A DNA stretch of 64,000 nucleotides, taken from Candidatus Fraserbacteria bacterium (GTDB lineage: Bacteria; Bipolaricaulota; Bipolaricaulia; RBG-16-55-9; JAJCYT01). The DNA is taken from contig JAJCYT010000018.1 in the NCBI GenBank assembly GCA_029262795.1, forward strand, positions 3,762-67,761. Reading direction: 5' to 3'. Below, piece by piece: positions 7,957 through 64,000 of this stretch (positions within the stretch are counted from its first letter, which is position 1; each line of letters opens with the position of its first letter). The notes beneath the pieces were generated by a model that did not search any database, had not been told where the DNA came from, and worked only from the letters and a program-made list of their open reading frames with translations. Made by a program: the position numbers and the translations under genes.

Positions 7957-8001
7957 TAGCCCCCTTCAGACGAAGGGGGTTGGGGGTTTGAAGCCTTTTA
8001 C
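7957..8001. repeat. G/C palindromic repeat element / bidirectional terminator between convergent genes
   Basis: tagCCCCCTTcagacgAAGGGGGttgggggtttgaagcc. Near-identical (about 45 nt) to the copy at 51124-51169. Confidence 0.6.
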
Positions 8002-20559: not shown

Positions 20560-20880
20560 CATAAAAAACTCCCCCAACGGACAGGGCGTTGGGGGAGTTT
20601 GAATGCATATTGCATTCTCTCAAAAGGGGTTGAGAGTTAACTGTCCTTTGCTTCACCCGCCTCCGTGATACCCCTTTGGGTGAGCCTGCCGGGACGTGCC
20701 CACACGCCTTCTCAATGCCCATACTTACACACAGGCCAACAATGGAACACCATGCATCAGGGGAAAACCCGTATCGGGAGGTACAACACGGAAAACCTTG
20801 TGCATGGCAAGGCATTGAGAAGACAAGTGAAAAATTTAAGGAGGTTTGACGACACTCTCGGTGTTTTTCCGTAATTCATT
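20560..20880 (-). ncRNA. Candidate structured non-coding RNA of unknown class (or long structured 3' region)
   Basis: The 645-bp gene-free gap between convergent genes is densely packed with helices. ctcccccaacg-gacagggc-gttgggggag is followed by TTTTTTAT on the minus strand (intrinsic terminator). Perfect hairpins gaatgca-tat-tgcattc and ctctcaa-aagggg-ttgagag. A 12-bp long-range helix cttctcaatgcc(20712-20723)/ggcattgagaag(20807-20818) encloses about 85 nt. No protein-like ORF. No tmRNA, RNase P or SRP RNA consensus recognised. Confidence 0.3.
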
Positions 20881-20984
20881 GCCTCTCACATCCACGTAGA
20901 ATTTCAGCTTAACGGGTGAATGTTAAATTGATGTTAAAAATTTTGATGACAGTGCCTTGATGAGCTTGAAGGTCTTTTATTGGC

Positions 20985-26310: not shown

Positions 26311-26337
26311 AATTCAACTGAATATCAACAAGCAGTG

Positions 26338-41790: not shown

Positions 41791-42052
41791 GTGCAACCTC
41801 CTCAAAAGTGTGTCTGCACCTACACCATAAAAACAATCCACTCAAATTGTCAATAGAGATGTACAAAACCCTCAAGGGGTAACCTTAATTTCCCCGTGAC
41901 GCGAGTTACATACGTTGGGGACACGCGTCCCTATAATCTCGGACAATACGGCGGCCAGAATTCTGTTTGTGGCCGTGGCTTTGGTCTTGCAGCTACCCAT
42001 AAGCGGCCAGATCAAATAATTGACCAAGCAACATAACCGAAGGAGGTTACTT

Positions 42053-48278: not shown

Positions 48279-50774
48279 TTGGAAAGGTCTGTGATGACCG
48301 CAAACAGCACTGACCGGCGGAGCGGCAACGCTGCGCTGGTCGCTGGTTTTTTTATCTGCTTTTGTTTGGGTGTGATGTTTGCTCCTGTGATAGGGTGGGC
48401 GTCGCACGACCGTCCCGTGTTTATTGTGGACGTCAACAATTCTCCAGACGATGATTTTGATGGCGATTATCATTTTCATTCTCTTAGCGCCGCACTCAGC
48501 GAATTTCCCAATCCAAAAGAAGATGAAACCATCAAGCTGGCCCCAGGGGTTTACAACGAATCCATCGTCCTCGATGTCGAAGGGCTGACGCTGGAAGCCA
48601 CAGGCGAGTTGGATCAAACCATTATTCAGGGCCAGATCACACTGGCTGCCAAGCGCATTCACGTCACTGGAATCAGCGTGGATGCAACCGCGTTGTCATT
48701 TGGCTTAAATGTGCTTGAAGACAAAACAGTGATTGAAAAGATGAATATTTTTGGTGCCGAAACCGGCATCCTGCTCAACACAGGCATGCCCATTAAAGAT
48801 GTGTCACTGACGGGCAATCGCATTTATCAAAACACAATTGGTATTGATGCTCAGGATCTGCGCTATGCTCAGATTCAAAGCAACGTGTTTGAAGACAACC
48901 GTCAAGTGGGCGGACGATTTGAGGCCGTTTACCAGGTACAGTTTTCGAGCAACATCTGGCGCTCCAATGAACGCGGTCTGATTCTGCGAGACAGTCGTGA
49001 ACTGGAATTGCTTCATGAAATATTTTCCAGTAATCGCCACTACGGGGCGCGTTTAAACGCGGTGGACATCGTGACAATCAATCACGCGGTGGTCGAATCC
49101 AACCGCGCTGTGGGGTTGCGATTGGATGATGTAAAAGACAATCGCATTTTAAATTCTCTCTTTCGCCACAATCACCAAGCGGGTTTGCGATTGGAAAACC
49201 ACAGCCAGCAAAATGTTTTACAGAACAACACGTTTGAAGCCCACACCGAAACGGACACCGCCGGACTGTGGGTGCTTGGGCCTGTGTACGACAATGTGAT
49301 TTTGAACAATCAGTTTGCAGACAATTGGATGGGCATCAAGCTGAGCAAGAAGAACGGCGCACCGGCCAGCAATCGTTTTGAGAACAACACCATTTCCAAC
49401 TCAATCGGTGATGGCCTCTACGTCGAAGCCAGCGAAGGCGACAATATTTTCAGGAAAAATGTTCTCAATCGAAACAATCGCCACGGCATCTATCTGGCAG
49501 GTGGGGATGATCAGGTCATCGATAACCGTATCGAATATTCCGGTGCGGAAGGCATTTGGGCCGATGGTGCAATTGGCCTGATTCTGCGCGGCAACACATC
49601 CATGTCCAATCAGAGCAGTGGTCTGAAATTAAGTGGTGATGGAATTAATTATTTGATTACCGAAAATAGTTTCGAACAGAATTTTCAACATGGATTGGTG
49701 ATTGAGTCAGGCTCAGATTTCCGTATCGAACACAATGAAATCAGCCAAAACCATCAACATGGCGCGATGGTTGGCAAGGTGAACAATCTGGAATTCAATC
49801 ACAACACCATCCAAAACAATGGTGAGTTGGGCATACTCATCGACCAAACTGAAAAACTTGATGCCAAAGGAAACACCATCTCACTCAACCAGGCAGGCGG
49901 CGTGCTTGTCCAATCTGGCATTGATCTGGACTTGGAAGGCAACGCCATTGTGGATAATCTTCATATGGGCCTGCGCCTGGAAGATGGCGAACTGATCGCC
50001 AAACGCAATTGGTGGGGCGATGTGCTTGGTCCTGCCGGTGTGTTTGAAGGGCGCGGCAATGCGGTCCTGGGCACACACCTGGAGCAAATTGTGCCCTGGC
50101 TGCCGGATGAACCGCAACGCATTGTTTTGTCCTCAGCCGATGCTGAAATTCTGGATGCCATTGGCCGCCAGGAAACCATTGAACTCGACCTGTTGGATCG
50201 CGCCGGTGTGCTCCTGGAGTTGTCCGAACTGGGCGTGAATGATGACGGAAAGCGTGTGCCAATTTCATTGGGCGCAATTTTGCTGTCTAAGTATCAGCAG
50301 ATAGAATTAGAAAACATTCCAACCCTGCCAGACACCTTGGCGCTTTACAACGTACAACTCAGTGGATTGAGCAACGGCGTGGCCAATCTGCTGGTCGATG
50401 TGGCTGAGTACAGCAACCACAATTTAAATCAACTCGCTTTGTGGTATTGGGATGGCGAACAATGGCTCGGCCTTCCGGGTCGCTTACGTGAGGCAGCCTT
50501 GCAAATGACAGGTGAAATTCGAGCAAATCTTCTAAAACCTGGATTGATTGCACTGGCCCCTCGCAGCAGCGAAGCACGTGAGTTTATGGCGCCTGTTTCA
50601 TCTACCAGCAATAGTGTTTCTGGTATGAACCTTGGCCGAAGTTCTCAATCAGCGTTTCGTTCAGAAGATTTTTCTTTGTTGTTTTTTGCGCTGATTGCTT
50701 TAGGCATTGGCAGATTGATTCGAAAATACCCTCATATCCGCATCAAACTTCTTGATCTGATTCAATTCAGATAA
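48279..50774 (+). CDS. Secreted beta-helix repeat protein, paralogue 3, with C-terminal hydrophobic helix + basic tail
   Basis: FIVDVNNSPDDDFDGDYHFHSLSAAL. NWWGDVLGPAGVFEGRGNAVLGTHLEQIVPWL. LALWYWDGEQWLGL. C-terminus EDFSLLFFALIALGIGRLIRKYP. Confidence 0.7.
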   Translation: MERSVMTANSTDRRSGNAALVAGFFICFCLGVMFAPVIGWASHDRPVFIVDVNNSPDDDFDGDYHFHSLSAALSEFPNPKEDETIKLAPGVYNESIVLDVEGLTLEATGELDQTIIQGQITLAAKRIHVTGISVDATALSFGLNVLEDKTVIEKMNIFGAETGILLNTGMPIKDVSLTGNRIYQNTIGIDAQDLRYAQIQSNVFEDNRQVGGRFEAVYQVQFSSNIWRSNERGLILRDSRELELLHEIFSSNRHYGARLNAVDIVTINHAVVESNRAVGLRLDDVKDNRILNSLFRHNHQAGLRLENHSQQNVLQNNTFEAHTETDTAGLWVLGPVYDNVILNNQFADNWMGIKLSKKNGAPASNRFENNTISNSIGDGLYVEASEGDNIFRKNVLNRNNRHGIYLAGGDDQVIDNRIEYSGAEGIWADGAIGLILRGNTSMSNQSSGLKLSGDGINYLITENSFEQNFQHGLVIESGSDFRIEHNEISQNHQHGAMVGKVNNLEFNHNTIQNNGELGILIDQTEKLDAKGNTISLNQAGGVLVQSGIDLDLEGNAIVDNLHMGLRLEDGELIAKRNWWGDVLGPAGVFEGRGNAVLGTHLEQIVPWLPDEPQRIVLSSADAEILDAIGRQETIELDLLDRAGVLLELSELGVNDDGKRVPISLGAILLSKYQQIELENIPTLPDTLALYNVQLSGLSNGVANLLVDVAEYSNHNLNQLALWYWDGEQWLGLPGRLREAALQMTGEIRANLLKPGLIALAPRSSEAREFMAPVSSTSNSVSGMNLGRSSQSAFRSEDFSLLFFALIALGIGRLIRKYPHIRIKLLDLIQFR

Positions 50775-50789
50775 TTTTTTAGAGACCTA

Positions 50790-50946
50790 TCTACTTGAGA
50801 AAGCAAATCATTATGATGGATAAAAGCTCTAATCCCCCAACCCCCTTTACATAAAGGGGGCACAATCCGACTGCGATGGTCTGTTCTTTGATAAATATCG
50901 TTATCTCTGAATGAAATATTGGGATTGGGTTGCTTTCTCAAGTAGA
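50790..50946. repeat. MITE-like element: 17-bp perfect terminal inverted repeats (tctacttgagaaagcaa) flanking about 125 bp that contain a CCCCCAACCCCCTTT-acat-AAAGGGGG palindromic repeat
   Basis: IR at 50790-50806 and 50930-50946. A degenerate direct duplicate of the internal segment (about 70% identity) lies just outside at 50951-51000. Confidence 0.45.
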
Positions 50947-51123
50947 CAGTCCTCTTACATAAAGAGCGCACGATGGGGATGCGATGTTTGTTCTTTAGGA
51001 TGTAGCGTCATTCTTTTTGAGGGTTTTAGTGCCCAGTATTTATATCTCAAAAAATATTTACTACTTAATCTTTCGGCTAGAATAACGTTATGAACTGAAG
51101 AGCAACCTCAAAAAATCAAACTG

Positions 51124-51169
51124 TAGCCCCCTTCAGATGAAGGGGGTTGGGGGATTTGAAGCTTTTAAC
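51124..51169. repeat. G/C palindromic repeat element, near-identical copy of 7957-8001
   Basis: tagCCCCCTTcagatgAAGGGGGttgggggatttgaagcttttaac. Confidence 0.6.
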
Positions 51170-51346
51170 CCTTTTAATATATGCCTTTGCTTTTTCAAAT
51201 GAATACATCTTGTTTTTTAACCGAGAGAGAGATGGACATACAGAAGTTTAAAACCTCTGTATGTCCATCGAGAAATGAAGAGTGTAGTGAAGAACGACCG
51301 CTGAAGACGAAAGCCTTACAGCAGTCGCTCTCCCACTCTTTTTCAA

Positions 51347-54300
51347 TTAGCTTACATTGACTGTTACTGTGGCGGTTGACGTCCCACCCTGACCATCGCT
51401 GATGGTGTAAGTAAAGGTGTCTTGACCCGTAAAGCCGCCATCAGGTGTGTATGTGATGGTGTTGTCACCATTGGCAACCACACTCCCGTTGGCCGGATCG
51501 CTTGTGCCTGTGATGGTTAAAATATCACTGGTATCAGGATCGCCATCGTTGACCAGCACGGTGATAGTCACGTCCGTTTCTGAAGCCGTGTCCACACTTG
51601 CTGTGTCGTCCATCGCCGTTGGATCATCGTTGATGCCATCTACGATAATGGTTAAAGAGATCGTGTTGCTGATGCCACCTTTGTCGTCTTGAAGTGTGTA
51701 GGTAAACGAAGTCACATCCGATTCACCAAAGGCCAGATGATCAAAATCGCTGCCAGGATCAAACTGTACCTGATCACCCGCGATGCTCACCGTACCACCG
51801 TTGTCAGTGACACCAATGCTTTCGATGCTGATCACATCAGACAAATCAACATCTTCCGTACCATTGATGACGCTGATTAAAGTGATGGTATCTTCATCCG
51901 CAAAGCCCGTGTTCACAGTTGCAATTGGATCATCGTTGACGCCGTCCACTATAATGGTGACCGTGCCGACGCTTTGTTCACCAAATTCATCTTCCATCGT
52001 GTAATCAAACGATTCGATGCCAGTTTCACCATCCGCCAGGGATTGGAAACTGAAGGATGGCGTGTAACTTAATGTGCCATCCATGTTGTCGATCAGCGTG
52101 CCGCCTTGATCGGGCGCATCTGCACTGACAAACAGGAGGATGGCACCATTATCCACATCGGTGTCGTTGAACAAAAGATCAGATGTTAAGAGATTGAACG
52201 CCACATCGTCTTCGTTGACGCCCAACACATCGTCAGGCATTGCAAGCGGCGCGTCATTCACACCCGTGACCATCATGGTTACTGTGGCGCTGGATGTCCC
52301 CCCGTTGCCATCTTCGATGTCGTAGCTGAAGCTGGTGAAACGGGATTCGCCCTCAGCCAAATCGTCAAAATCCACATCTGGATCAAATTCAATTTGGTTG
52401 CCGCTGAGGTTGGCAACACCGCCATTGTCCGGTGTGCCGACACTCGTAATTGTGAGAGTGTCGCTGGTGTCAGGATCGGTGTCGTTGAAAACCGCATCAA
52501 TCAAGACAATCGTGTTTTCATCTGTGGTTTCGCTTGGATCGTCCATTGCGGTAGGATCATCATTCACACCACTGACGGTCACCGTCACACTGGCAGTCAC
52601 GGTTTCCGTGCTATCGGTGACATCATAGGTAAACGTGGTGGCTCGGAATTCACCCACAGCGAGATCATTAAAATCTGCACCTGGATCAAACTCAACCTGA
52701 TTACCATTGACACTGGCACTGCCGCCGTTGTCCGGCGTGCCCACAGCATCGAGGCTCAAGCTGTCGCTCGTATCGACATCAGTGTCGTTACTCAAAACGC
52801 TGAGCAGGGCAATCGTGTCTTCGTCCGTGGTTTCACTCGGATCGTTTTGAACAACCGGTGTGTCGTTGAGGCCAGTGACTTCTACTGTCACTGTGGCCGT
52901 GTCCGTACCGCCGTTGCCATCTGAAATGTCGTAAGTAAAGCTGGTAGATCTCATCTCGCCATCGTCCAGATCCTGGAAGTCCAGGCCCGGATCAAACAGG
53001 ATTTGATCACCGCTGATGTTGGCGCTGCCACCATTGTCAGGCACGCCCACTGTTGCAATGCTGATCGTGTCCAAGTCGAGATCACTGTCGTTGAACAACA
53101 CGCTGATGAGCAGGTTGTTGTCTTCGTCTGTCGTTTCGTTTGGATCATCCACCGCATCAGGGTCGTCATTGATTGCATTCACCGTGAGGTTCACTGTGCC
53201 CACCACCACGCCGCCGAAGCCATCGCTCACCGTGTAGGTGAAACTGTCTGCGCCGTTGGTGTTGAGTGTTGGCATGTAGGTAAAGCTGCCATCGATGGTC
53301 ACATTTACCGCACCACCTTGAACACTAAGCGCATCAAAGCCGGTAACGGTGAGGCTGTCGCCGTCGTTGTCACTGTCGTTATTCAACAAGCCAGTGGCTG
53401 CATCGACAGTCAGTAACGTGTCCTCATCTGTGGCGTAATCATCCCCAACAACTGTCGGTGGCTGGTTGGTGTCGTTGACTGTGATTTCAAAACCAGCCAC
53501 ATCGGTAAACTCGCCATCGTCACAACTCACCTGATTGCTTGGGAAATTCACAGACAAGTCAGGTCGCTGCACCACCGAGAACGTTGGGGTGTAGGTCAAC
53601 GTGCCTGTGCCGTTGCCATTGGCATTAAAGTTTGCGCCAGGTGGCAAGTTGGCGGCCGTAACTGTGAGATTGGCACTGAGCGTGTCCACATCGGTACAGG
53701 TGGCGACAAAACTCAACAAGTTATTTTCTGCAATGGTCTGATCGGTAATGGCCGTCATGACCGGCGGATCGTTAACCGGCGTGACGGTAATCGTCACACC
53801 GGCGGTTGCCAAACCGCCATGGCCGTCATCGACCTGGAATACAAAGCTGTCACCGCCATTGTAGTTAAGGTCTGGTGTGTAGGTGGCTGTGCAATTTGCA
53901 TTGACCACCAAGACACCATGCGTAGGATCTGTGTCAGACGTACAGGTCAACGGATCGCCATCTGGATCGTTGCCGCTCAGTGTCAACGGAAGCACGTTGT
54001 CTTCGGCCACAAACACCGTCTGACCAAAGGCCACAGGGTTGCGATTGAGAACATCAATCGTAATTTGTGCCGTGTCGCAGGCGCCTGCCAAATCACACAC
54101 GTCGTAGTTGAATACATCCTGACCGACAAAGTCGAAGTCTGGGGTGTAGGTCAACTGGCAACCATTGAACACCAAAGTGCCGTGCTGTTCGCCTGGCGTA
54201 CCTTCGCTACAGGTGAGCGTATCACCTTCACGACTGATGTCCACATCGCTGACAGGCAGGATCAAAATCACATTCGTGTCCTGCAACGTGCTGGCGCTGA

Positions 54301-57300
54301 TGTCGTCTGCATTCGGCGGATCATTGACTGGATCAACCTGAATTGTGATCACAGCCGTGTCAGTTTCGCCATTGCCATCGTCCACCTGGAAGGTAAAGCT
54401 GGTGTTACCGTTGAAATCCTGAACATCCGGCAAGTATTCACAGTCAGGCAAGACCGTACAGGTGAGCGTGCCTTTCAAGCCAGCGGTACTCACAATGCTA
54501 AACGTCAGTGTGTCCAAGTCCACATCGGAGCCAGTCAGCGTAATGGCCAAAGGCGTCAGGCTGTCTTCGTTAATTGGACCAACAGTCTGAGGATCAGCCA
54601 CTGGCGGATCGTTGACTGAAATCACAGTAATGTCAATCGTGCCGGTTGCGCTGCCGCCAAAGCCGTCTGTCACTTCGAAGTCGAAGCTGACTGGACCGTT
54701 GAAATTCAACGGCGGATTGTAAGTACAGTTTGGAATGTTCGTACAGTCCAGGCCGGTAAGTGGTGCACCTGTGAGGGCAAAGCCCAAACTGTCCAAATCA
54801 AAGTCATTCGCACTAAGCACGATAGGAATACCCGTATCTTCGTCCACTTCCAAAGTTTGGTTGTTTGGAATAGGATCACGGTTCAAGTCATTGACTGTTA
54901 CCGTGTGGGTGTTGTTCACCGTGTTTACACCATCACTGCAGGTCAATTCGATACCTGTAAAGTCCGACGTTGTGATTGGGTGTGCCAATGTTGCATATGT
55001 TGGCTGATAGAAGAATGCGCCTGCACCATTGCCAGAATCCACAAACAAACCAAAGCCTGGTGTGTTCGTGCTGTCCAGCAACAACAACGCAGAATCTGTG
55101 TCCACATCGGTACACGTCACTGGCACGGTGAGGTTGTTTTCTTCAACCACGGTTTGATTTGGCACCACGGTCAACACAGGGGCATCGTCCACGGCAATCA
55201 CCACGATGGTGATGGTGGCGGTGTCACACTTCGGATCGACAAAATCGTCGTCGCAGATGGTGTAGGTAAAGCTGTCCACACCATTGAAGTTGAGCATCGG
55301 TGAGTACGTGAGCTTGTTGCCCAGTAACGTCACCGTGCCACCCTGGGCACTGACCGCATCAAAGCTGTCGATGGAAACCCCATCGCCATCAGGATCGCTG
55401 TCATTGCCCAATGGAAAAATATCCAAATCGGTGTCTTCATTCACGTTGTCGCTATCGTTCTTAGCGTTTGGCGCGCTGTTGAACACGGTGATATTCACGG
55501 TGTCCTGCGCACAGAAACTGGCATTGCACACTTCATAGATAAAGCTGTCCACGCCCACAAAATCTGGGTTTGGCGTATAGGTGCAGTCTGGGTTGGCACT
55601 ACAATCCAACGTGCCATTATCCACATCATCAATGATGCTGTAGCTGGTACCGCCAACAGAAGTCAAAGTAAAGAACTTTGCCACATTCTTTGGTGTGGAC
55701 TGATCTGGGGTTAATGGCAACGGTGTGTTACCACCAAGGCTTTCAATTTCGAGCATCACTGTGCCTACGGCTGTACCGCCAAAGCCATCGTCCACCAAGA
55801 AGGTGAAGCTGTCATCTCCATTAAAACCGGGGTCTGGCATGTAGGTGGCAGTACAATCCGAATTCACTGTTGCCACACCGTCACTGGCCTGAGTGTTCAG
55901 GCTACAGGTCAATACATCGCTTTCAGGATCGGAGCCAGTCAACACCAGATTGAGTAAGGTATCGGCTGGGGTAAATGCACTCTGATCATCTGCACTTGGG
56001 TCACGATTGACGTCGGTGACGGTGATATCGAAGCTCTGCATCACCACTTCACCAAACTGATCGTCACAGGTGACGTCCGCTGTAAACACCTCATCAGGTG
56101 CAGGAGCGACTGGCGGATGGGCCACCACGTCAAAATCGGGTGAATACGTCAGTGAGCCACTGCCATTGCCACCATCCACAAAATTGGCGCCAGGAGGCAG
56201 GTTGTTGACTGTGATCACTGGGTTTGGATTTTCCAAATCATCACACGTAATGACCAATGCCAATGTCGTGTTTTCAGGCACGATCTGATTGGCGATTGGA
56301 TCCAACACAGGTGGATCGTTGACGTCGCCCACCAAAATGTTGACCACAGCCTGGTCCGAGCCATTGCCGTCAGTAACGGTATAACCAAATCGGTCAATGC
56401 CAGAATAATTGGCATCTGGCGTATAAGTGACCGTACAGGTACCAGGATCAAACACAGTGGTACCGTGGGCCGGATTGGCCACCACGGGGTTACATGTGAG
56501 TGAATCATTCTCTGGATCAGACACGTCCAGCACAATCACTTTTGAATTATCTTCGGTCACATTGACAAACATATCGTTGGCAACCGGAGGATCGTTCACG
56601 GGGTTCACCGTGATGTTGACTGTGGCTGTGTCTGTGCCGCCATCGCCATCGTCCACCTCAAACACAAAGCTGTCGCTGCCAGTGAAGTTGGTATCCGGCA
56701 AGTACGAACAGTTTGGCATGGACGAACAATCCAGCGTGCCATTGGCAGGTGCGGTGGTGATGGTGTAAGTCACGGGATCACCATTCACATCGAAACTGGA
56801 AAGTTCCATTGGCACACTCAAATCTTCAAGGGTTTCGAGTGTGATGTTGTTGGCAACGGGGGGCGTGTTGGTGACTTCAATCGTCACCGTTCGTGTGAGA
56901 CACACACTGAACTGGTCACACACTTCGTAATCGTAGCTGTCCGTGCCCACAAAGCCCACATCATGGGTGTAGGTGACGGTGTTACAGCCGTTTTGATTCA
57001 GGGAACCATCCGTTGGTCCAGAGACGATGGTGCAGGTCAGCACGTCGCCTTCGTTGCTTAAATCGGCATCTCCCACTGGCAGGTTGGTCACCACTGGGGT
57101 CGGGTTGAAGTGATTCTGTTCCACCGTTTCATTCACGTTGCTGGCCGTTGGCGGATCATTGACGGCAGTGATGTTAAACGTCACTGTCGCTGTATCGAAG
57201 CGCCCCGTGCCATCAGTGATGGTGTAGGTGTAAGAATCCGTACCCGTTTTGTTTGAATTCAAGGTATAAGTACATCCATTTGGATCGCAGTTCACAATCC

Positions 57301-60300
57301 CTTTGCTGGGCTGCGTAAAGCTGTCCACAGTCACCACGTCGCCATCAAACGGCGTATCGGGGTCACTGTCGTTGATCAACACGTCGATCACCAAAGGCGG
57401 GTCATCTTCGGTCACATCAATCACACCGTCGTTGATTGCCACAGGCGGATCGGGTTCGGAGGTGATGTTGATGTCCACCACAGCGGTGGTCTGTTTTCCA
57501 AAGCCGTCGTCCACCTGGAAGGTGAACTGATCGGTGCCGTTGTAATTGGGATCAGGGAAATACGTACAGTTAGGCATCGCAGGACAATTCACCGTGCCGT
57601 TGGCCGGTGGCGTGTCGATGCTGAAGGTCAATGTATCACCATCCAGATCACTGCCACTGAGCGTCAATGGAATCGGAATGTCTTCCAAAGTTGCAAGTGC
57701 CTGTGGATTGGCTGTTGGTGCACGATCTTTGTCATGCACGGTAATGGAAAAGTCTTGGGAATCCTGAACCTGACCATCGCTACAAACCACATTGATGCCA
57801 TTAAACACTTCATCTGGTGCGGGGTTAACCGCATGGTTGATGAGATTAAAGCTTGGCGTGTAGCTAAACGTGCCACTGCCGTTGCCGTTGTCTACAAAGC
57901 TGACGCCGAAAGGCAAGTTGGTCACATCAAAGGAAAGACTGTCGCCATCCACATCCGTACAAAAAGCGGTGAAGCCAAGCGTGTCGCCTTCGTCTTCTTC
58001 CTGGTCAGGGATGAATGCCAACACAGGGGCATCGTTGACTGGATTCACAGTCACGCGCAAATTCGCGGTATCGCACAAGGATGGCGATACATCGAAGCCA
58101 TTGTCCAAAGCGTTGTCGCAGACCTCATAGGTCATATTGACCACGCCAGTGAAATCCTGGGCAGGCGTGAAGGTGATCTTCCCGTCCGCAGGATTGACCG
58201 ACACTGTGCCTTCAGATGGATCAGGTGGGGTCAACACCGTGACGGTGGCAGGGTCTAAATCCCCACCGATGTCTTTATTGTCGTTGTCATTGCCCAGCAC
58301 ATTGACTGTTTTGGGCGTATCTTCCGGCGTATTTGCGCCGTTGTTGTTCTTTGCCGTAGGTGGGTCATTGATCGGGTTGACCGTGACTGTCACCGTGGCA
58401 GTGTCGCACAATTCATTGGCGGCATAGTTGTCGCAAATGGTATAGGTGAAGGTATCCACACCGTTGAAATCAGCATCAGGTGTGTAATCAATCGTGCCAT
58501 CAGGATTGATGCTGACCGTGCCGTTGGCAGGGTCACTTGCATCAGTCACTTCCAAATTGGCCACGTCTTCGGCATCTGGATCACTGTCATCGGGCAGCAC
58601 GGTGATGGTCACAGGGGTGTCTTCATCCGTGCTGTCGCTGTTGTCGGTGGCATTGGGTTGACGGTTCACATCGTTGACCGTGATGTTAAACGCATCCGTG
58701 TCCGACAAACCGCCGATGCCATTGTCCGTACAGGTGACATCCACTCCACTAAACACTTCGTTCGTGCCAGGGTGGATGATTTCCGTGAACAATGGAGTAA
58801 AGGTAATTACGCCCGTGCCATCAGTGTTGTCTACAAAGTTGGCACCTGGAGGCAAGTCCTGAACTGTGATGGCCAGACTGTCACCGACAGTGGCAGTGTC
58901 CACATCCGTACAGGTGAGGTTGACCGTGAGCAGGCTATTTTCATCAATCACTTTATTTGGAATCGGCGTCAGTATCGGATCGTCATTGACGGGATCAATC
59001 GTGATATCAATCACGGCAGTGTCACACAACACGCCAGGAACCGCAGGCGTGCCATTGTCCTCACCATCGTCACAGACCTGATAGGTGAACTGATCCGTGC
59101 CGTGGAAATTGAGGTCTGGGGTATAAACACAACTTGGTGCAGACGTACAATCTAAGGTGCCATTGTCCACATCATCCGTAATTGTGTGAACCAGATCAGT
59201 CACAAATTCGATGTCCAGATCGCTGGTCATCAACACCAAAGGCAGGCTGACATCTTCATCAATCGTGAAGCTGTCGTCCAAGGCCACAGGCGGATCGTTG
59301 ATTGGCGTGACCGTGATGTCCACGATGGCTGTGTCAATTTCGCCATCGGGGTCCGTCACTTTAAACGTGAACTGATCCGTGCCGTTGTAATGGCTGTCTG
59401 GTGTGTAGGTACAATCTGGCAGCACCGTACAGACCAATGTGCCGTTGTCCACATTGTCAATAATTTCGTAAATTAATGGATCGTTATTGGGATCGGAACT
59501 CGTTAAAGTAATATCAATCGGCGTGTCTTCGAGCGTTGTTTTGCTCTGTGGGTCAGCCGTTGGTGGATCGTTACTCACCTGGATGGTGATCGTGTTGGTC
59601 GCACACAAAATGCCTTCTGGTGTGTTCTGTCCAGCATCGGTGCCATCGTCACAGACTTCATAATCGAATGTGTCCGTGCCAATGAAATCCTGAGTCGGCG
59701 TATAGTCAAACGTACAATCACCATTCACTGTGACCGTGCCATTTACAGGCTGTGGACCGTCCAATGAACAGGTCAACGTCGCGCCCGTATCCTGAGGATC
59801 GCTGACAGGCAAAGAAACGCTCGTCAAATCCTGAGGATCGCCAGCCGTATTTTTACGCATAGAATGTAAGTCAGGATCAGCCACAGGGGCATCGTTGGCA
59901 GGGTCCACCGTGATTGTTACGGTCGCGGTATCAAACCCGCCATGCCCGTCAGAAATCGTGTAGGTATAAGTGTCCACGCCATTGAAATGTGGATCAGGCG
60001 TATAAGTACATTGAGTGCCTGTGCAGTTGACGCTGCCATTGCTCGGCTGCGTCCACACCGTGATGGCCAATGAATCACCATCAGGGTCGGTATCATTCGG
60101 GATTACCACAGGGGTGGTCACTGGTGTGTCTTCAGGGGTTATGTCCGAATCATCCTTGGCATCAGGAGCATCGTTGACACCGATGATGGTAATGGTCACT
60201 GTGGCAGTATCAGAACCGCCAAAGCCATCTTCAATTGTATAAGTGAATGTTTCTTGTGCCGTTTCACCCACGGCCAGGTCCTGGAACGCGCTGCCTGGAT

Positions 60301-63106
60301 CGTAAGTAAAATTGCCGCCACCATTGTTGGTTACGCTGCCAAGCACACCTGTGTCGTCAAAACTGACCACGGTGAGAGTGTCGTTGTCTGGATCGCTGTC
60401 CACACCGTTGCCGTTGTCGTTGAATACGTTGAAGGAAACGGGATTGTCTTCGTCAGTAGACTCTTCATCATCAATGGCAACCGGCGGACGGTTGACGTCG
60501 ATGACCGTGATGCGGAACGGATCGTTGTCGTTCAAATTGCCAGCCCCATCGTCCGTACACACCACATTCACGTTGTTGAACAACGCCTGGAAGTTGGGGT
60601 GATCGACCACATCAAAATCCGGCGTGTACACAATTTGACCAGTACCATCGCCATTGTCGGTCAGCACAGCACCGGCAGGGGCATTGAACACTTCCAGAGT
60701 CAGGCTGTCGCCATCCACTGGGGTGTCCACATCGCTACAACTCAAATTCACTGTGAGTGTGTCATCTTCATTGATCGTTTGATCAGGAATCACCGTGAGG
60801 ACAGGCGCATCGTTGACCGGATCAATTGTCACCGTCACTGTGGCTTCGGCACACAAAACACCTGGAGGGGCATCGTTGCCCGCATCTTTGCCATCGTCAC
60901 AGACTTCGTATTTAAAGGTGTCTGTACCGTGAAAGTTTAAGTTTGGTTCGTAGGTGATCTGACCCGTTACGCTGTCGATGTTGGTAATCGTGCCGTTGCT
61001 TGGGCCTTCGCCACTTACAATTTTTACAGAGCTTGGCACAATTAAACCATCAATATCCGTATCGCCATCAAGCACATCGATGGTGATGGGCGTGTCTTCA
61101 TTGGTGGTTTCGTTTTCATCATCCGGCGTCGGTGGGTCATTGATCGCGTTGATACTAATAGTCACTGTGGCCGTATCACACTCATTGTCAGGATCACAAA
61201 GAATGTAAACAAAAGAATCATTGCCATTAAAGTTTGGATCAGGATCGTATGTAATCGTGTTATCTGGGTTGATCGTGACCGTGCCGTGATCGGGCAAATC
61301 CTGAATCCCAGTGATGGTCAGGTCATCGCCATCCACATCAAAATCGTTGCCGATGACGGTCAGATCCACAGGCAAATCTTCATCAGTCAGATTCACTGTG
61401 TCATCTTCAGCAACGGGTGGATCGTTGACAGGATTGATCAAAATATCCACACGGCCAATGTCGGATGCACCAAATGGATCGCTCATGGTAAATTCAAAAA
61501 AGTCCGTGCCGTTGTAATCGGGGTCAGGCGTATACTCGGCGGAACAATCTTCATTCACGATAACCGTGCCGTGTTCTGGTTCTTTATTCAATGCACACGT
61601 CAACGGATCGTCTTCGGGATCAGAGCCCGTCAACGTCAATGGCAGTGACGTATCCTCATCAATCGTGTGGGATTGATCGTTGGCTTCTGGTGGCCCGTTT
61701 TGGATCACAATGGTGACCGTGGCCAAAGACACGTTGCCATCTTGATCCTGTACCTGGTACACAAAAGTATCGGTGCCTGAAAACCCTGGCTCAGGCACAT
61801 AACGGTAGTTGGGACCATTGCCACTGACCGTACCGTTTTTTGGCAGATCTACTATGGTAAACAATAAGGTCGGGTTGTCTTCACTGCTTTCGGTTTCCAC
61901 TTCAATGTCCGTCGGTGTGTTGGACGGAATAAATACGGTTTTATCTTTGGCCTCCAGCTCAGAACTATTGACTGGCTCTGGCCCTGGAGGCGTGTCTGCC
62001 ACAGTGATAATGACAATGCCAAACGCAATGCCACCATGTTCGTCTTCAACTTGGAACACGATGGTTTCGCTGCCGGTAAAACCTGCATCTGGAATGTATG
62101 TTTGGTTAGGGCCTGAACCCACCAAAGACCCGTGCAATGGGCCATTTACAATGCTAAACGTCAACGGATCGTTGTCTGGATCCTGACCGGTCAGCGTCAG
62201 ACTGAGGGTGCTGTCCACACCAATAAGATGATTTTGATTAAAAGCAATTGGCAAGTTGTTTGTGGCCTGCCCCACGCGCTTTAATGGGTCAGGGTCAAAC
62301 TTTGGTAAAATATTAGGACAGTGAGAGATTTTTGATTGGCCCAACAGACACATGAAGTAATCTTCGGTTTCCCCAAACTCGAAGTCGCCTTCGCCCGTCC
62401 AGCCCATGCCGCCGCGGGAGACTGCCAGAAAATTTTCGGTGTCAATCGGTACAGTGGTCACGGTGATGCGCATCCACATTTCACCCTCTTCGGGGCCGGT
62501 CAAAAAGGCTGGCAGGGTGACGGTGCCCTGAAACCCAGGTTTCAGGTTGTATGGCTCTTTGTGCAAAGCAAGGTTTTGAATGGGCCATTCCACCGCTTTT
62601 CGAGTGGTCAGTTGGGTAGCTCCTGGGCAACTGCTTGAACCTTCCCAGGCAGCGTTGTGGTCCCAGTCAAAAAGCAGATTTAAATAAATGGCCACTGGCC
62701 CTTCACTTTCTTCGGGCACGGTGACTTCCACATTAAGCTGTGTCATCGCACAGGGAGAAAAGCTGCTGGGGTGCCAACCATCATCCAGGTCGGAATCCAC
62801 CAAAATGGCGTCGCTTTCTTCGGTCACAGTTTTGCCGAGAAACACCTTTTCCTCAGGCTCGCGGTGGCGAATAAAGAACGTTTCGGTACCAAAGGTTTCA
62901 TCAAAGATGCCAGAAGGAAAACGAGCCTCTGCCTCAGGGTTGGATACTTCGTAGCCAACAGGCTCGTTGTTTTCCGGTGCATCTCCAAAATCGCCTAAAG
63001 GGGGTTTTTCATCTTCGGGTTGTGCGTGCATGGTGGCAGAAACCAACACCATACAAACGGCTAACACATAAAACAGAACGGGGAACTTGCTTTTGACAAA
63101 GCGCAT
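51347..63106 (-). CDS. Giant (3919 aa) secreted adhesin-like protein: N-terminal GEVED-like domain followed by about 30-plus tandem about 95-100-aa cadherin/VCBS/Ig-like repeats
   Basis: Signal peptide MRFVKSKFPVLFYVLAVCMVLVSATMHAQ. N-terminal domain ends FGETEDYFMCL. Repeats recur with ...DTATVTITV.PVNDAPVA/VNDPPVA...EDT... Protein ends within a repeat (…TATVTVNVS), with no LPXTG, PEP-CTERM or T9SS C-terminal domain recognised. GGAGTGG RBS. Confidence 0.85.
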   Translation of the reverse strand: MRFVKSKFPVLFYVLAVCMVLVSATMHAQPEDEKPPLGDFGDAPENNEPVGYEVSNPEAEARFPSGIFDETFGTETFFIRHREPEEKVFLGKTVTEESDAILVDSDLDDGWHPSSFSPCAMTQLNVEVTVPEESEGPVAIYLNLLFDWDHNAAWEGSSSCPGATQLTTRKAVEWPIQNLALHKEPYNLKPGFQGTVTLPAFLTGPEEGEMWMRITVTTVPIDTENFLAVSRGGMGWTGEGDFEFGETEDYFMCLLGQSKISHCPNILPKFDPDPLKRVGQATNNLPIAFNQNHLIGVDSTLSLTLTGQDPDNDPLTFSIVNGPLHGSLVGSGPNQTYIPDAGFTGSETIVFQVEDEHGGIAFGIVIITVADTPPGPEPVNSSELEAKDKTVFIPSNTPTDIEVETESSEDNPTLLFTIVDLPKNGTVSGNGPNYRYVPEPGFSGTDTFVYQVQDQDGNVSLATVTIVIQNGPPEANDQSHTIDEDTSLPLTLTGSDPEDDPLTCALNKEPEHGTVIVNEDCSAEYTPDPDYNGTDFFEFTMSDPFGASDIGRVDILINPVNDPPVAEDDTVNLTDEDLPVDLTVIGNDFDVDGDDLTITGIQDLPDHGTVTINPDNTITYDPDPNFNGNDSFVYILCDPDNECDTATVTISINAINDPPTPDDENETTNEDTPITIDVLDGDTDIDGLIVPSSVKIVSGEGPSNGTITNIDSVTGQITYEPNLNFHGTDTFKYEVCDDGKDAGNDAPPGVLCAEATVTVTIDPVNDAPVLTVIPDQTINEDDTLTVNLSCSDVDTPVDGDSLTLEVFNAPAGAVLTDNGDGTGQIVYTPDFDVVDHPNFQALFNNVNVVCTDDGAGNLNDNDPFRITVIDVNRPPVAIDDEESTDEDNPVSFNVFNDNGNGVDSDPDNDTLTVVSFDDTGVLGSVTNNGGGNFTYDPGSAFQDLAVGETAQETFTYTIEDGFGGSDTATVTITIIGVNDAPDAKDDSDITPEDTPVTTPVVIPNDTDPDGDSLAITVWTQPSNGSVNCTGTQCTYTPDPHFNGVDTYTYTISDGHGGFDTATVTITVDPANDAPVADPDLHSMRKNTAGDPQDLTSVSLPVSDPQDTGATLTCSLDGPQPVNGTVTVNGDCTFDYTPTQDFIGTDTFDYEVCDDGTDAGQNTPEGILCATNTITIQVSNDPPTADPQSKTTLEDTPIDITLTSSDPNNDPLIYEIIDNVDNGTLVCTVLPDCTYTPDSHYNGTDQFTFKVTDPDGEIDTAIVDITVTPINDPPVALDDSFTIDEDVSLPLVLMTSDLDIEFVTDLVHTITDDVDNGTLDCTSAPSCVYTPDLNFHGTDQFTYQVCDDGEDNGTPAVPGVLCDTAVIDITIDPVNDDPILTPIPNKVIDENSLLTVNLTCTDVDTATVGDSLAITVQDLPPGANFVDNTDGTGVITFTPLFTEIIHPGTNEVFSGVDVTCTDNGIGGLSDTDAFNITVNDVNRQPNATDNSDSTDEDTPVTITVLPDDSDPDAEDVANLEVTDASDPANGTVSINPDGTIDYTPDADFNGVDTFTYTICDNYAANELCDTATVTVTVNPINDPPTAKNNNGANTPEDTPKTVNVLGNDNDNKDIGGDLDPATVTVLTPPDPSEGTVSVNPADGKITFTPAQDFTGVVNMTYEVCDNALDNGFDVSPSLCDTANLRVTVNPVNDAPVLAFIPDQEEDEGDTLGFTAFCTDVDGDSLSFDVTNLPFGVSFVDNGNGSGTFSYTPSFNLINHAVNPAPDEVFNGINVVCSDGQVQDSQDFSITVHDKDRAPTANPQALATLEDIPIPLTLSGSDLDGDTLTFSIDTPPANGTVNCPAMPNCTYFPDPNYNGTDQFTFQVDDGFGKQTTAVVDINITSEPDPPVAINDGVIDVTEDDPPLVIDVLINDSDPDTPFDGDVVTVDSFTQPSKGIVNCDPNGCTYTLNSNKTGTDSYTYTITDGTGRFDTATVTFNITAVNDPPTASNVNETVEQNHFNPTPVVTNLPVGDADLSNEGDVLTCTIVSGPTDGSLNQNGCNTVTYTHDVGFVGTDSYDYEVCDQFSVCLTRTVTIEVTNTPPVANNITLETLEDLSVPMELSSFDVNGDPVTYTITTAPANGTLDCSSMPNCSYLPDTNFTGSDSFVFEVDDGDGGTDTATVNITVNPVNDPPVANDMFVNVTEDNSKVIVLDVSDPENDSLTCNPVVANPAHGTTVFDPGTCTVTYTPDANYSGIDRFGYTVTDGNGSDQAVVNILVGDVNDPPVLDPIANQIVPENTTLALVITCDDLENPNPVITVNNLPPGANFVDGGNGSGSLTYSPDFDVVAHPPVAPAPDEVFTADVTCDDQFGEVVMQSFDITVTDVNRDPSADDQSAFTPADTLLNLVLTGSDPESDVLTCSLNTQASDGVATVNSDCTATYMPDPGFNGDDSFTFLVDDGFGGTAVGTVMLEIESLGGNTPLPLTPDQSTPKNVAKFFTLTSVGGTSYSIIDDVDNGTLDCSANPDCTYTPNPDFVGVDSFIYEVCNASFCAQDTVNITVFNSAPNAKNDSDNVNEDTDLDIFPLGNDSDPDGDGVSIDSFDAVSAQGGTVTLLGNKLTYSPMLNFNGVDSFTYTICDDDFVDPKCDTATITIVVIAVDDAPVLTVVPNQTVVEENNLTVPVTCTDVDTDSALLLLDSTNTPGFGLFVDSGNGAGAFFYQPTYATLAHPITTSDFTGIELTCSDGVNTVNNTHTVTVNDLNRDPIPNNQTLEVDEDTGIPIVLSANDFDLDSLGFALTGAPLTGLDCTNIPNCTYNPPLNFNGPVSFDFEVTDGFGGSATGTIDITVISVNDPPVADPQTVGPINEDSLTPLAITLTGSDVDLDTLTFSIVSTAGLKGTLTCTVLPDCEYLPDVQDFNGNTSFTFQVDDGNGETDTAVITIQVDPVNDPPNADDISASTLQDTNVILILPVSDVDISREGDTLTCSEGTPGEQHGTLVFNGCQLTYTPDFDFVGQDVFNYDVCDLAGACDTAQITIDVLNRNPVAFGQTVFVAEDNVLPLTLSGNDPDGDPLTCTSDTDPTHGVLVVNANCTATYTPDLNYNGGDSFVFQVDDGHGGLATAGVTITVTPVNDPPVMTAITDQTIAENNLLSFVATCTDVDTLSANLTVTAANLPPGANFNANGNGTGTLTYTPTFSVVQRPDLSVNFPSNQVSCDDGEFTDVAGFEITVNDTNQPPTVVGDDYATDEDTLLTVDAATGLLNNDSDNDGDSLTVTGFDALSVQGGAVNVTIDGSFTYMPTLNTNGADSFTYTVSDGFGGVVVGTVNLTVNAINDDPDAVDDPNETTDEDNNLLISVLFNDSDLDLDTISIATVGVPDNGGSANISGDQILFDPGLDFQDLDDGEMRSTSFTYDISDGNGGTDTATVTVEVTGLNDTPVVQNDPSETTDEDTIALLSVLSNDTDVDTSDSLSLDAVGTPDNGGSASVNGNQVEFDPGADFNDLAVGEFRATTFTYDVTDSTETVTASVTVTVSGVNDDPTAMDDPSETTDENTIVLIDAVFNDTDPDTSDTLTITSVGTPDNGGVANLSGNQIEFDPDVDFDDLAEGESRFTSFSYDIEDGNGGTSSATVTMMVTGVNDAPLAMPDDVLGVNEDDVAFNLLTSDLLFNDTDVDNGAILLFVSADAPDQGGTLIDNMDGTLSYTPSFSFQSLADGETGIESFDYTMEDEFGEQSVGTVTIIVDGVNDDPIATVNTGFADEDTITLISVINGTEDVDLSDVISIESIGVTDNGGTVSIAGDQVQFDPGSDFDHLAFGESDVTSFTYTLQDDKGGISNTISLTIIVDGINDDPTAMDDTASVDTASETDVTITVLVNDGDPDTSDILTITGTSDPANGSVVANGDNTITYTPDGGFTGQDTFTYTISDGQGGTSTATVTVNVS

Positions 63107-63360
63107 CGATGACCACTCCTCATTTCTCGTGCTTCTAAATCTCTCTCAAAAAATTTAGATCTCGTTAAGGCTCACACCTTAATTACAAACCATAGCGCCA
63201 TATAAACTTTTTTACTGTGCTATACGACCCTAATATATTTGTAAATAATATAAAAAAGTTATGATAATTTTCTACATACAAACAGCGAAATTCCAACATA
63301 AAAACGATGGAAATTTGATGTAAATAGTTGAGTTAGAGCAATGAAAGTGATGTGTATAAC

Positions 63361-63396
63361 AAGAGGCTTTCCAGATGTAACTGGAAAGCCTCTTGC
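63361..63396 (-). terminator. Stem-loop (14-bp stem) downstream of the DUF11 gene, upstream of the giant adhesin promoter region
   Basis: aagaggctttccag-atgtaa-ctggaaagcctctt. AT-rich 250-bp region follows toward the adhesin start. Confidence 0.45.
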
Positions 63397-63408
63397 ATTT
63401 ACTTTGTG

Positions 63409-64000
63409 TTAATTAACAGTTGTGTTTTCCGAATCGCTGTCGTTGCCAGCATTCGGATCGGTGGCCGTGGTGGTCACCAAAGCTGTGTTGGTCAGCACCC
63501 CACTAAAGCCTGGGTTAACCGTCACTGTGAGTGTCACGGTTGCATTGCCTCCACTGCCAATGGCGCCAAGGCTGCACGATATGGACGTGCTGCCACTACA
63601 CGACCCCTGGCTCGGCACAGCAGAGTTCAACGTCACGCCAGAAGGCAGACTGTCGAACACCGTCACGCTGGTGGCTTCAGAAGGGCCACTGTTGCTGATG
63701 GTCACCACATAGATCAACTGTTGACCGGCGTTCACCGGATCAGGATTGTCTGTCATCGTCAAGATCAGGTCAGACACCTTGTTGATGGTGGTGGTTGCCG
63801 CCCCCGTGTTGTTGCCTGGGGTGGGGTCGGTGGTGCTGGTGGTCACTGTGGCAGTATTGGTGATGGATGAACCCGGGAAGTCCGAATCCACAATCACCGA
63901 GAACACCACGGTGGCACTGGCTTGGGCTGCCACTGTACCGATACTGCAAGTAATTGTGGTGCCTTCCACACACGATCCCTGGCTTGGCGTCACAGAGCCG
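63409..64000 (-). CDS. DUF11 (conserved repeat domain) surface protein, C-terminal part (N-terminus beyond window end)
   Basis: Tandem DUF11-type repeats: NTATVTT.TTDP.PGNN....TTV, DLILTMTDNPDPVNAGQQLIYVVTISNSGPSEATSVTVFDSLPSGVTL, GSCS..TSISCSLG. Confidence 0.7.
   Translation of the reverse strand, partial: GSVTPSQGSCVEGTTITCSIGTVAAQASATVVFSVIVDSDFPGSSITNTATVTTSTTDPTPGNNTGAATTTINKVSDLILTMTDNPDPVNAGQQLIYVVTISNSGPSEATSVTVFDSLPSGVTLNSAVPSQGSCSGSTSISCSLGAIGSGGNATVTLTVTVNPGFSGVLTNTALVTTTATDPNAGNDSDSENTTVN

Follow-up and report, generated by a model that had tools for sequence, protein, structure and literature searches.

An intact 11.76-kb gene for a giant, probably exported protein of tandem cadherin-like repeats that has a GEVED-like head but lacks any known C-terminal sorting signal

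Can an 11.76-kb reading frame built largely of protein repeats be trusted as a gene when it comes from a metagenome assembly and, if so, how would its product be exported and retained? Within the window (the whole stretch of DNA analysed, 64,000 nucleotides long), the frame occupies positions 51347 to 63106 on the reverse strand, stop codon included. The ORF list and translation agree with an earlier note on this DNA that it is a single ORF of 3919 aa (about 410 kDa) with an ATG start, and a good GAGGAG ribosome-binding site precedes it. There are no internal stops in the translation, and the probability of 3919 stop-free codons is about 1e-82 under uniform codons. We find that the gene is real, intact and conserved, and that its product is a fibre protein, probably exported, whose repeats belong to a widely known family.

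The earlier note had called the DNA highly repetitive and a hotspot of both recombination and mis-assembly, and the data contradict both statements. Tandem Repeats Finder detected no tandem repeats in the gene's DNA, and self-BLASTN found a longest exact repeat of 19 nt within the gene, with the top internal matches reaching 66–75% identity over 100–290 nt. Because the encoded repeats are on average 32% identical in pairwise protein comparison (maximum 56%) and the longest exact DNA repeat is so short, concern over recombination or assembly error is unsupported. The Logan assembly of SRR15505519 matches the window with 0 mismatches over 12,874 nt and carries exactly the same protein on one contig (L001), which ends at position 51127, at an intergenic REP-like element outside the giant gene.

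An orthologue (P0048, orthologous locus L083) is found in two further assemblies, on a 3.2-Mb JGI contig (3300032138, Ga0315338_1000001) and an 842-kb ENA contig. It has exactly the same length, 3919 aa, and aligns with zero gaps at 86.8% nucleotide and 92% protein identity. The comparison yields a dS of 0.65 and a dN/dS of 0.067, with dN/dS remaining between 0.02 and 0.11 across all 300-codon windows; every part of the gene is under strong purifying selection, and the number of repeats is fixed between diverged strains (nucleotide difference 13%). The fastest-diverging part comprises repeats R32–R37 (residues ~3300–3919), where nucleotide identity to the orthologue is 72–83%, as compared with 90–95% in the centre; dN/dS there is 0.07, which is not elevated, and dS is high as well. 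A split gene with a missing C-terminal piece was rejected, since only 128 bp separate the stop codon from the next gene in the orthologous locus. What speaks for a pseudogene or a mis-assembled repeat array is the prior alone that attaches in general to repeat genes of such length when they come from metagenomes. The lack of internal stops, the identical second assembly, the equal-length orthologue, the low dN/dS and DNA repeats that are all too short for assembly collapse weigh against such a reading, which is extremely improbable and is refuted as far as sequence data allow.

Most of the protein is a stalk. Our own iterated HMM resolves 37 tandem cadherin-like 'tandem-95' repeats at residues 283–3916 (51359..62260, reverse strand), back to back with linkers of 3–18 aa, which revises an earlier count of roughly thirty while confirming their length of about 95 aa. 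Their consensus reads ND-P-A ... ED ... D-D-DGD-LT ... TYTPD--F-G-D-F-Y-V-D ... TATVTI. The repeats match a well-characterised domain, an outcome that the earlier note had named as one that would speak against its reading, with scores far above the respective cut-offs: NCBIfam tand_rpt_95 (NF012211; 1332.3 bits versus 90, in 32 stretches) and Pfam Big_9 (PF17963; 1545.6 versus 23.6), Cadherin_4 (PF17803; 1061.3 versus 25.1) and Cadherin_5 (PF17892; 1018.7 versus 26.5), the Pfam models in 31–33 stretches each. Annotated tandem-95 proteins with the same ~95-aa consensus come from many phyla, with examples in Bipolaricaulota MAGs. Compared with these relatives, the protein described here has a GEVED-type head, 37 copies that fill the remainder of the chain, and no terminal sorting domain, whereas some of the relatives listed are annotated with LPXTG, RTX (HemolysinCabind) or a retention module. 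The 37 copies are of long standing and have drifted far apart.

An AlphaFold2 model of the last two repeats, R36–R37 (pLDDT 94.5), has 258 Foldseek matches in the PDB at E <= 1e-3, including cadherin and protocadherin EC tandems, modules of Staphylococcus aureus SraP, and GH107 cadherin-like modules. The predicted fold matches EC–EC tandems with a TM-score of up to 0.55 (probability 1.00), at a sequence identity of only 12–20%. A PDB search with the whole protein as a single sequence returned only a weak match to a phage collar sheath; a profile of the repeats did better, matching chain 36gk_A at E 1e-9. Cadherins bind Ca2+ through DxNDN and DxD motifs, which the acidic linkers here recall. 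Acidic motifs (ND-P-A, D-D-DGD) are conserved in the repeat consensus, and the composition is extremely acidic (13.5% D; 684 D+E versus 66 K+R). By analogy, the fibre is probably stiffened by Ca2+, although Ca2+ binding is putative here. The protein is a bacterial one, and it has neither a transmembrane nor an LPXTG anchor. The stalk contains two classes of repeats. Nearly all of R03–R30 (53477..61699, reverse strand) have two cysteines, and some have one, three or four (69 in the whole protein); mostly paired within a repeat, they probably form disulphides. Repeats R31–R37 (51359..53467, reverse strand) are a cysteine-free, VCBS-like subclass, as determined by clustering and cysteine counts.

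At the other end, residues 1–24 (63035..63106, reverse strand) look like a Sec-type signal sequence, in line with the signal peptide proposed earlier. Read by eye, it consists of a basic n-region (MRFVKSK), a hydrophobic core (~19 residues without charge; Kyte-Doolittle mean over 19 aa as high as 2.29) and a c-region that is probably cut between VSA and T or between MHA and Q. This typical n/h/c-region pattern is kept in the orthologue. In a scan of the whole protein, the signal is the sole strongly hydrophobic 19-aa window besides one beta-strand. A lipoprotein reading of LAVC (residues 15–18) was rejected: valine at position −1 does not agree with a lipobox, and the hydrophobic stretch runs past the cysteine.

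Between signal and stalk lies a head module of ~255 aa (residues ~30–282; 62261..63019, reverse strand), an extended GEVED-type beta-sandwich according to Pfam, its homologues and AlphaFold2. The Pfam GEVED core (PF20009) covers residues 141–252 (62351–62686, reverse strand) with an E-value of 1.4e-4 and 23.1 bits, just under the gathering cut-off of 24.4, which homologues of the head do pass. At the domain's end, FEFGETEDYF spans residues 242–251, and its GETEDY motif is invariant throughout the head-family alignment; the earlier description of a GEVED-like N-terminal domain ending in FGETEDYF holds at this sub-threshold level. NCBIfam has no model for the head. Among the matches listed, all shorter than 900 aa, there are 46 homologues, the best at 46% identity and several with PF20009. 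A profile search with the head reaches 6670 cluster representatives at E <= 1e-3, large module-bearing proteins among them, and elsewhere the module occurs in 1–18 tandem copies, also at internal or C-terminal sites. The AlphaFold2 head model (pLDDT 83) is all-beta, and its Foldseek PDB matches are generic beta-sandwiches only (complement MG domains, NBR1 Fw, PapD-like domains, CBMs). With the best TM-score at 0.29, no match is informative and we propose no ligand or function for the head.

How does the chain end? The earlier note had it terminating inside a repeat. Instead, the last repeat spans the full model (positions 1–90 of 90) and is followed by three residues, the protein ending in ...TATVTVNVS, and in the AlphaFold2 model of the last two repeats the final strand ends at the penultimate residue. 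The lack of LPXTG, RTX, T9SS-CTD and PEP-CTERM signatures stands: motif and Kyte-Doolittle scans detected no terminal LPXTG or PEP motif and no hydrophobic tail, sorting-signal models, run at a limit as lenient as E <= 10, matched nothing in the C-terminal 70 aa, and no Pfam or NCBIfam match to LPXTG, PEP-CTERM, T9SS CTD, GlyGly-CTERM, SLH, OmpA or similar anchors occurs anywhere in the protein.

A giant stalk of tandem Ig-like or cadherin-like repeats could also belong to a type I-secreted RTX adhesin of the LapA, MpIBP or SiiE type. The repeat profile matches a PDB chain named 'RTX protein' (36gk_A, E 1e-9), and the NCBIfam BapA/Bap/LapF model is matched weakly and in part (126.6 bits versus a cut-off of 180). 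Yet the protein has an N-terminal Sec-type signal and a folded domain as its C-terminus, the expression GG.G.D.[LIVFMY]. for RTX nonapeptides (GGxGxDxUx) has zero matches in the whole protein, and Pfam HemolysinCabind has none either. A dedicated secretion system was also sought in the neighbourhood, and neither the 64-kb window nor the orthologous flanks contain ABC transporter, membrane-fusion or TolC genes. The type I RTX giants (LapA, MpIBP, SiiE, FrhA) are likewise extended fibres; they are acidic, of giant size and built on tandem beta-sandwich stalks, and they depend on Ca2+. The secretion logic here is the opposite: an N-terminal Sec signal, with no RTX motif, C-terminal secretion signal or nearby T1SS genes. 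The RTX reading is refuted on its defining features, and we give it very little credence.

The gene has a second giant as its upstream neighbour, and this bears on how both may be retained. The window edge cuts the neighbour, leaving its 3' end at 63409..64000 (reverse strand, Pfam DUF11); in the orthologous locus (L083, 1601–9700) it encodes a 2699-aa DUF11/CLIPPER protein with PF01345 repeats. Its N-terminus bears the same head module (47% identity, E 2e-74), and no C-terminal anchor was found in it either. The two giants form a conserved pair, and their shared head is a new observation, while GEVED-type modules and DUF11 stalks recur together in other large proteins. The neighbour is itself a CLIPPER adhesin, a class whose stalks are built of isopeptide-type CnaA-like domains rather than the cadherin-like domains found here, and its stalk is probably isopeptide-locked.

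A head that is all two anchor-less neighbours have in common raises the alternative that the fibres are held at their N-termini, by the GEVED-type head or by an uncleaved signal anchor, with the stalk pointing outward and the variable R31–R37 as the distal, interacting end. The long hydrophobic core of the signal can be read as a signal anchor, and divergence peaks in the C-terminal ~600 residues, which belong to the distinct Cys-free subclass. Conversely, AXA-like cleavage sites are present and conserved, the C-terminal dN/dS is not raised where dS is high too, and the module's tandem, internal and C-terminal occurrences elsewhere are unexpected for such a device. A dedicated anchoring role also fits the head poorly, as homologues combine the module with separate anchoring devices (SLH and an N-terminal transmembrane helix in P0004, and FlgD_ig tails). 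We regard N-terminal retention of the fibre as unlikely, if worth keeping in view. Its stronger form, in which the head of both giants, also present in at least one smaller secreted protein that this genome encodes (P0003), is an N-terminal envelope-retention module replacing C-terminal sorting signals in toga-type diderms, appears improbable. If true, both fibres would be planted by their heads with the variable C-terminal repeats exposed, a Sec-dependent counterpart to the N-terminal retention modules of T1SS adhesins.

Export raises a further alternative. By its rpoB protein, whose named relatives (65–66% identity) are all Acetothermia, Bipolaricaulota or Fraserbacteria, the uncultured source bacterium is assigned to the Bipolaricaulota/Acetothermia–Fraserbacteria clade. 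Members of this clade are reported to be atypical diderms whose outer layer resembles a toga and leaves a large polar space. A Sec signal does not by itself account for the crossing of an outer membrane, and the flanking DNA, about 10 kb in each direction from the gene, contains no outer-membrane secretion device. Since the protein has a Sec signal alone and no such device nearby, it could be periplasmic or toga-associated instead of sitting on the outer surface: a structural element that never crosses the outer layer and serves to space or scaffold the gap separating the cell body from the toga or stalk. The absence of T1SS, T5SS and T9SS features agrees with this site. Against it, a surface or extracellular location is described for relatives of the repeat, of GEVED and of CLIPPER, and the toga-like envelope is a clade-level report, not this organism's own. 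We know of no periplasmic giant cadherin-like fibre. A periplasmic or toga-space role is, in our judgement, a doubtful reading of the protein.

The surrounding DNA is that of a surface-protein locus. Three secreted NosD-like parallel beta-helix genes (42020–44401, 44607–48257 and 48279–50774, forward strand), paralogous to one another, converge on the giant gene, which lies downstream of the DUF11 gene, both as noted before. The third NosD-like protein ends in a transmembrane helix and a basic tail, and the synteny and this C-terminal tail are conserved in the orthologous locus; the five genes constitute a conserved surface-protein island of about 29 kb. The statement that repeat elements surround the giant gene applies only to its downstream side, where a ~445-bp intergenic insertion (50780..51224), missing from the orthologous locus by BLASTN, has a REP-like hairpin element of ~40 nt at its two ends, in inverted orientation (three copies aligned). 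Upstream, the sole repeat-like element is a single hairpin with a 15-bp stem (63360–63395) after the upstream gene. It lies in the AT-rich, 302-bp intergenic region (63107..63408, reverse strand), where a consensus scan found 5 promoter-like sites in total versus 1.1 expected, three of them on the coding strand; these are consensus matches only.

Is 'adhesin' the proper name for such a protein? The GEVED domain takes its definition from CshA, a fibrillar adhesin (PMC10952558), and both it and CLIPPER (PMC12617251) are described in fibrillar adhesins. The CshA-type adhesins of Streptococcus gordonii combine an NR2 ligand-binding domain, GEVED, a repeat stalk and LPXTG (PMC10952558). The order of signal, non-repeat head with a GEVED-type element and long repeat stalk is similar here; the differences are the lack of NR2 and LPXTG, a GEVED match below the Pfam cut-off and a tandem-95 stalk (CshA_fibril_rpt scores 23 bits versus a cut-off of 60). 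On the strength of the cadherin-like stalk fold and of GEVED's origin in CshA, 'adhesin' is a reasonable label by architecture only, with the expected anchor part missing. The earlier note's broader description survives: a giant secreted repeat protein whose head is GEVED-like and whose C-terminus bears no sorting signal that can be recognised.

The reading we favour, and consider probable, is a functional, exported, extremely acidic fibre with a Sec-type signal, a GEVED-type head, 37 cadherin-fold domains and no known covalent anchor. Sec would export the giant protein, and its domains would fold outside the cytoplasm, with disulphide pairs forming in R03–R30. Ca2+ would bind, in the manner of cadherins, where linkers and loops carry the acidic motifs ND-P-A and D-D-DGD, and at ~4.5 nm per domain the result would be a stiff rod of roughly 150–170 nm. 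The rod may sit on the cell envelope through non-covalent contacts or be shed into the matrix; it would mediate attachment, aggregation or envelope or matrix structure, and the CLIPPER giant would display the same head on a different stalk.

There is little here that is new in kind, as thousands of tandem-95/cadherin-like giants have been annotated, some of them in Bipolaricaulota MAGs. Against the assumption that a giant repeat gene will be unstable or wrongly assembled, this one stands as a clean counter-example. Two neighbouring giants that share one head on two mechanically different stalks are a natural instance of head/stalk domain shuffling. They raise the question of how giants with a Sec signal but no anchor arrive at, and remain on, the surface of this clade's little-known toga-type envelope, a question that has been tractable only since the first cultured representative of the Bipolaricaulota was reported in 2025.

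The giant's gene at 51347..63106 (minus strand) is a single open reading frame of 3919 codons that starts with ATG and contains no internal stop, an outcome with a probability of ~1e-82 under uniform codon use. The ATG is preceded at 7 nt by a GAGGAG ribosome-binding site, and the coding strand of the AT-rich 302-bp spacer 5′ of the gene carries promoter-like sites. The exact protein is present on a Logan contig (run SRR15505519) that agrees with the window at 12,874 of 12,874 overlapping bases and ends at window 51127, in an intergenic REP-like element outside the gene. A second member of the protein's cluster, an orthologue found on two contigs, one of 3.2 Mb from JGI and one of 842 kb from ENA, is also 3919 aa long and aligns with zero gaps (92% protein and 86.8% DNA identity). 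According to the Nei-Gojobori method, dN is 0.044, dS is 0.65 and dN/dS is 0.067, varying from 0.02 to 0.11 across all 300-codon windows. Because the frame is stop-free, the assemblies agree and the orthologue is so conserved, the sequence data indicate an intact, correctly assembled gene on which purifying selection acts strongly over its full length. A pseudogene or artefact is refuted as far as such data allow. The feature reported in an earlier note, a single 11.76-kb ORF, is real (ATG start, no stop, agreement of several independent assemblies), although some of that note's details were inaccurate.

The protein belongs to a well-known kind, the tandem-95 or bacterial cadherin-like giant proteins. 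Using an HMM iterated on the giant itself, we found 37 repeats (R01 to R37, from N- to C-terminus), not the roughly thirty previously counted, arranged back to back across residues 283-3916 and each 78-106 aa long. Their consensus is ND-P-A ... ED ... D-D-DGD, and they score far over the cut-offs of Big_9, Cadherin_4, Cadherin_5 and NCBIfam tand_rpt_95; their profile also matches 36gk_A, the solved domain of an 'RTX protein' (E 1e-9), as well as the collar sheath protein of a phage. R37 matches the repeat model end to end with only three residues after it, and in an AlphaFold2 model of R36-R37 (pLDDT 94.5) the final strand stops at residue 195/196; therefore, the giant ends at a domain boundary and does not terminate inside a repeat, as had been proposed. 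A structure search showed that this model resembles the EC tandems of cadherin, protocadherin and desmocollin, and the cadherin-like modules of SraP and of a GH107 fucanase. Pairwise identity among the repeats averages 32% and reaches 56%. Repeat subclasses are interspersed; one variant type (R06, R12, R15, R21, R25 and R30) reappears at intervals of 3-6 repeats, a pattern suggestive of block duplications long ago. Most of R03-R30 carry two cysteines per repeat, and the VCBS-like R31-R37 carry zero. The protein has a mass of ~410 kDa, 13.5% Asp, and 684 acidic versus 66 basic residues.

The underlying DNA had been described as highly repetitive, a hotspot for recombination and assembly error. 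This is contradicted by our analysis: Tandem Repeats Finder reported nothing in window 50000-64000, the longest exact repeat inside the gene is 19 nt, and the best BLASTN self-matches have 66-75% identity over 100-290 nt. Together with the zero-indel orthologue, the lack of long DNA repeats speaks against an unstable repeat number and a collapsed assembly. The two strains have diverged unevenly, with 72-83% DNA identity across the last ~600 residues (~3300-3919) versus 90-95% in the centre. In the C-terminal six or seven repeats (window 51359-53170), dS rises to 1.9 and dN climbs along with it, while the repeat number stays the same; the pattern is compatible with, and hints at, faster turnover or allelic exchange at this end. 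The gene's stability and constraint, and the corrections to the number of repeats and to the place where the protein's last domain ends, are useful additions.

At the opposite end, residues 1-24 (MRFVKSK, then FPVLFYVLAVCMVLV, then SA) read as a Sec signal. Small-residue sites, with putative cuts at the slash, are conserved at VSA/T and at MHA/Q (IHA/Q in the orthologue); with its long uncharged run of ~19 residues, the N-terminus may act as an uncleaved signal anchor. The head module follows at residues ~30-282, with a Pfam GEVED match at residues 141-252 that scores 23.1 bits, just short of the 24.4-bit cut-off. GEVED takes its definition from the adhesin CshA, in which it has the ligand-binding domain on one side and the stalk on the other (PMC10952558). 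In an alignment with 46 homologues, several of which carry PF20009, the head's GETEDY motif is invariant, and an AlphaFold2 model built on that alignment is an all-beta sandwich (pLDDT 83) with only weak and generic fold matches in the PDB. When searched against 1.84 billion cluster representatives, the head profile found 6670 proteins at E <= 1e-3; they reach 4094 aa in length, and in them the module has no fixed place and occurs 1-18 times. Therefore, by its sequence distribution, the head belongs to an extracellular domain family that is large and widely shuffled, and is not a lineage-specific invention.

The earlier note's statement that no C-terminal sorting signal is recognisable held up. 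Models for LPXTG, PEP-CTERM, T9SS, GlyGly-CTERM, MYXO-CTERM, SLH and RTX had no match to the whole giant and none at E <= 10 to its last 70 residues; RTX nonapeptides were absent from the giant, and past the signal its only hydrophobic segment is one beta-strand. A T1SS adhesin was rejected, failing the defining tests. In the orthologue, the gap between the stop codon and the next gene is just 128 bp, which rules out a detached C-terminal piece. No secretion or sorting system is recognisable among the other genes of the 64-kb window or in 10-kb orthologous flanks. The rest of the window is housekeeping and metabolic (Lon-like protease, GDH, acyl-CoA synthetases, EF-Tu, NusG, L1/L10/L12, rpoB, methylmalonyl-CoA mutase, aconitase, M56 peptidase).

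NusG (13058-14176, 372 aa), in a conserved tRNA / EF-Tu / NusG / L1 / L10 / L12 / rpoB cluster, carries an inserted 'NusG additional domain' (PF18298); Thermotoga NusG has a similar insertion. The 1119-aa rpoB is not followed by rpoC (16545-19904 and 19905-20984). No part of the window encodes the universal NADFDGD motif, and in four related MAG loci (L002-L005) it is likewise absent within 3 kb of rpoB. Separation of rpoB from rpoC seems to be characteristic of this lineage. The M56/BlaR1-like peptidase ORF (28485-31046, minus) has at its 3′ end a 33-nt tandem repeat (28489-28752; at least 6 overlapping copies, 61-83% identical) encoding an 11-aa acidic repeat. Two pairs of long, mutually antisense ORFs, at 9296-11036 (503/531 aa) and 26335-27711 (427/457 aa), have no Pfam match on either strand.

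The giant lies in a conserved island with an MraY-like glycosyltransferase, a 2699-aa DUF11/CLIPPER protein and three secreted NosD-like beta-helix paralogues that are convergent with it. CLIPPER is the recent new name of DUF11, a domain with isopeptide bonds that builds stalks in fibrillar adhesins (PMC12617251). The CLIPPER giant occupies 1601-9700 of the orthologous locus, and the window covers its last 194 residues (63409-64000). In the orthologous locus, its N-terminus bears a version of the cadherin-like giant's head module (47% identity, E 2e-74); it too starts with a signal sequence, and its C-terminus showed no sorting signal. With a common head and different stalks, the locus thus reads as two giant fibres of a single head type and two stalk types; the same head on the neighbouring protein is new here and a useful addition. 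Elsewhere, GEVED-type modules are joined to DUF11 stalks in large proteins, and head homologues are fused to a single DUF11 domain, SLH or FlgD_ig tails or, in a smaller protein on the same 3.2-Mb contig (P0003), a YpfJ-like zinc peptidase.

The main rival explanation is that both giants are retained by their N-termini, either by the head that they share or by a signal left uncleaved, and that the variable C-terminal repeats lie at the far end. The idea is attractive in that the head is the sole part common to both, and neither has a C-terminal anchor. However, other proteins contain the module internally and in many tandem copies, and next to anchors of a separate kind, and we consider such retention unlikely, though a serious contender.

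The third beta-helix protein (48279-50774, plus), alone of the three, ends in a transmembrane helix and basic tail (FSLLFFALIALGIGRLIRKYPHIRIK..., the C-terminal ~45 codons, about 50640-50774), kept in the orthologue. None of the known sorting-signal models recognises this tail, which may be a plain tail anchor or a sorting signal not yet recognised, and is possibly the membrane tether of the island's products. Between the convergent gene ends, ~445 bp (50780-51224) are missing from the orthologous locus, and the Logan contig breaks exactly there. Inverted copies of a ~40-nt REP-like hairpin (AATCCCCCAACCCCCTT-N6-AAGGGGGC; third copy at 7955-7998) bound this segment at 50822-50865 and 51122-51165; its absence from the orthologous locus and its inverted borders suggest a small mobile or REP-associated insertion.

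The closest rpoB relatives have 82-85% identity; the nearest named ones, at 65-66%, are Candidatus Acetothermia, Bipolaricaulota and Fraserbacteria, as is every named relative among the rpoB matches listed. The head's best named relative comes from a Bipolaricaulia MAG. The literature describes the clade in general as atypical diderms with a toga-like outer layer, an S-layer, an Omp-alpha/Omp-beta SLH tether and no LPS. For a diderm in which no path across the outer membrane is apparent, a periplasmic or toga-space role of the giant is conceivable, but we regard it as improbable.

The giant has a signal of the exported type, a head built as a beta-sandwich and 37 domains of cadherin fold; it is extremely acidic and strongly constrained, with paired cysteines and no known anchor. 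We favour, with some confidence, a Sec-exported, Ca2+-linked, cadherin-like rod that is held non-covalently or released. Cadherins provide the model for Ca2+ at acidic linkers, and by analogy the giant, exported through Sec, would fold its domains outside the cytoplasm with Ca2+ bound at such linkers. At ~4.5 nm per domain, a stiff rod would be roughly 150-170 nm long and, whether non-covalently held or released, would serve attachment, aggregation or envelope/matrix structure.
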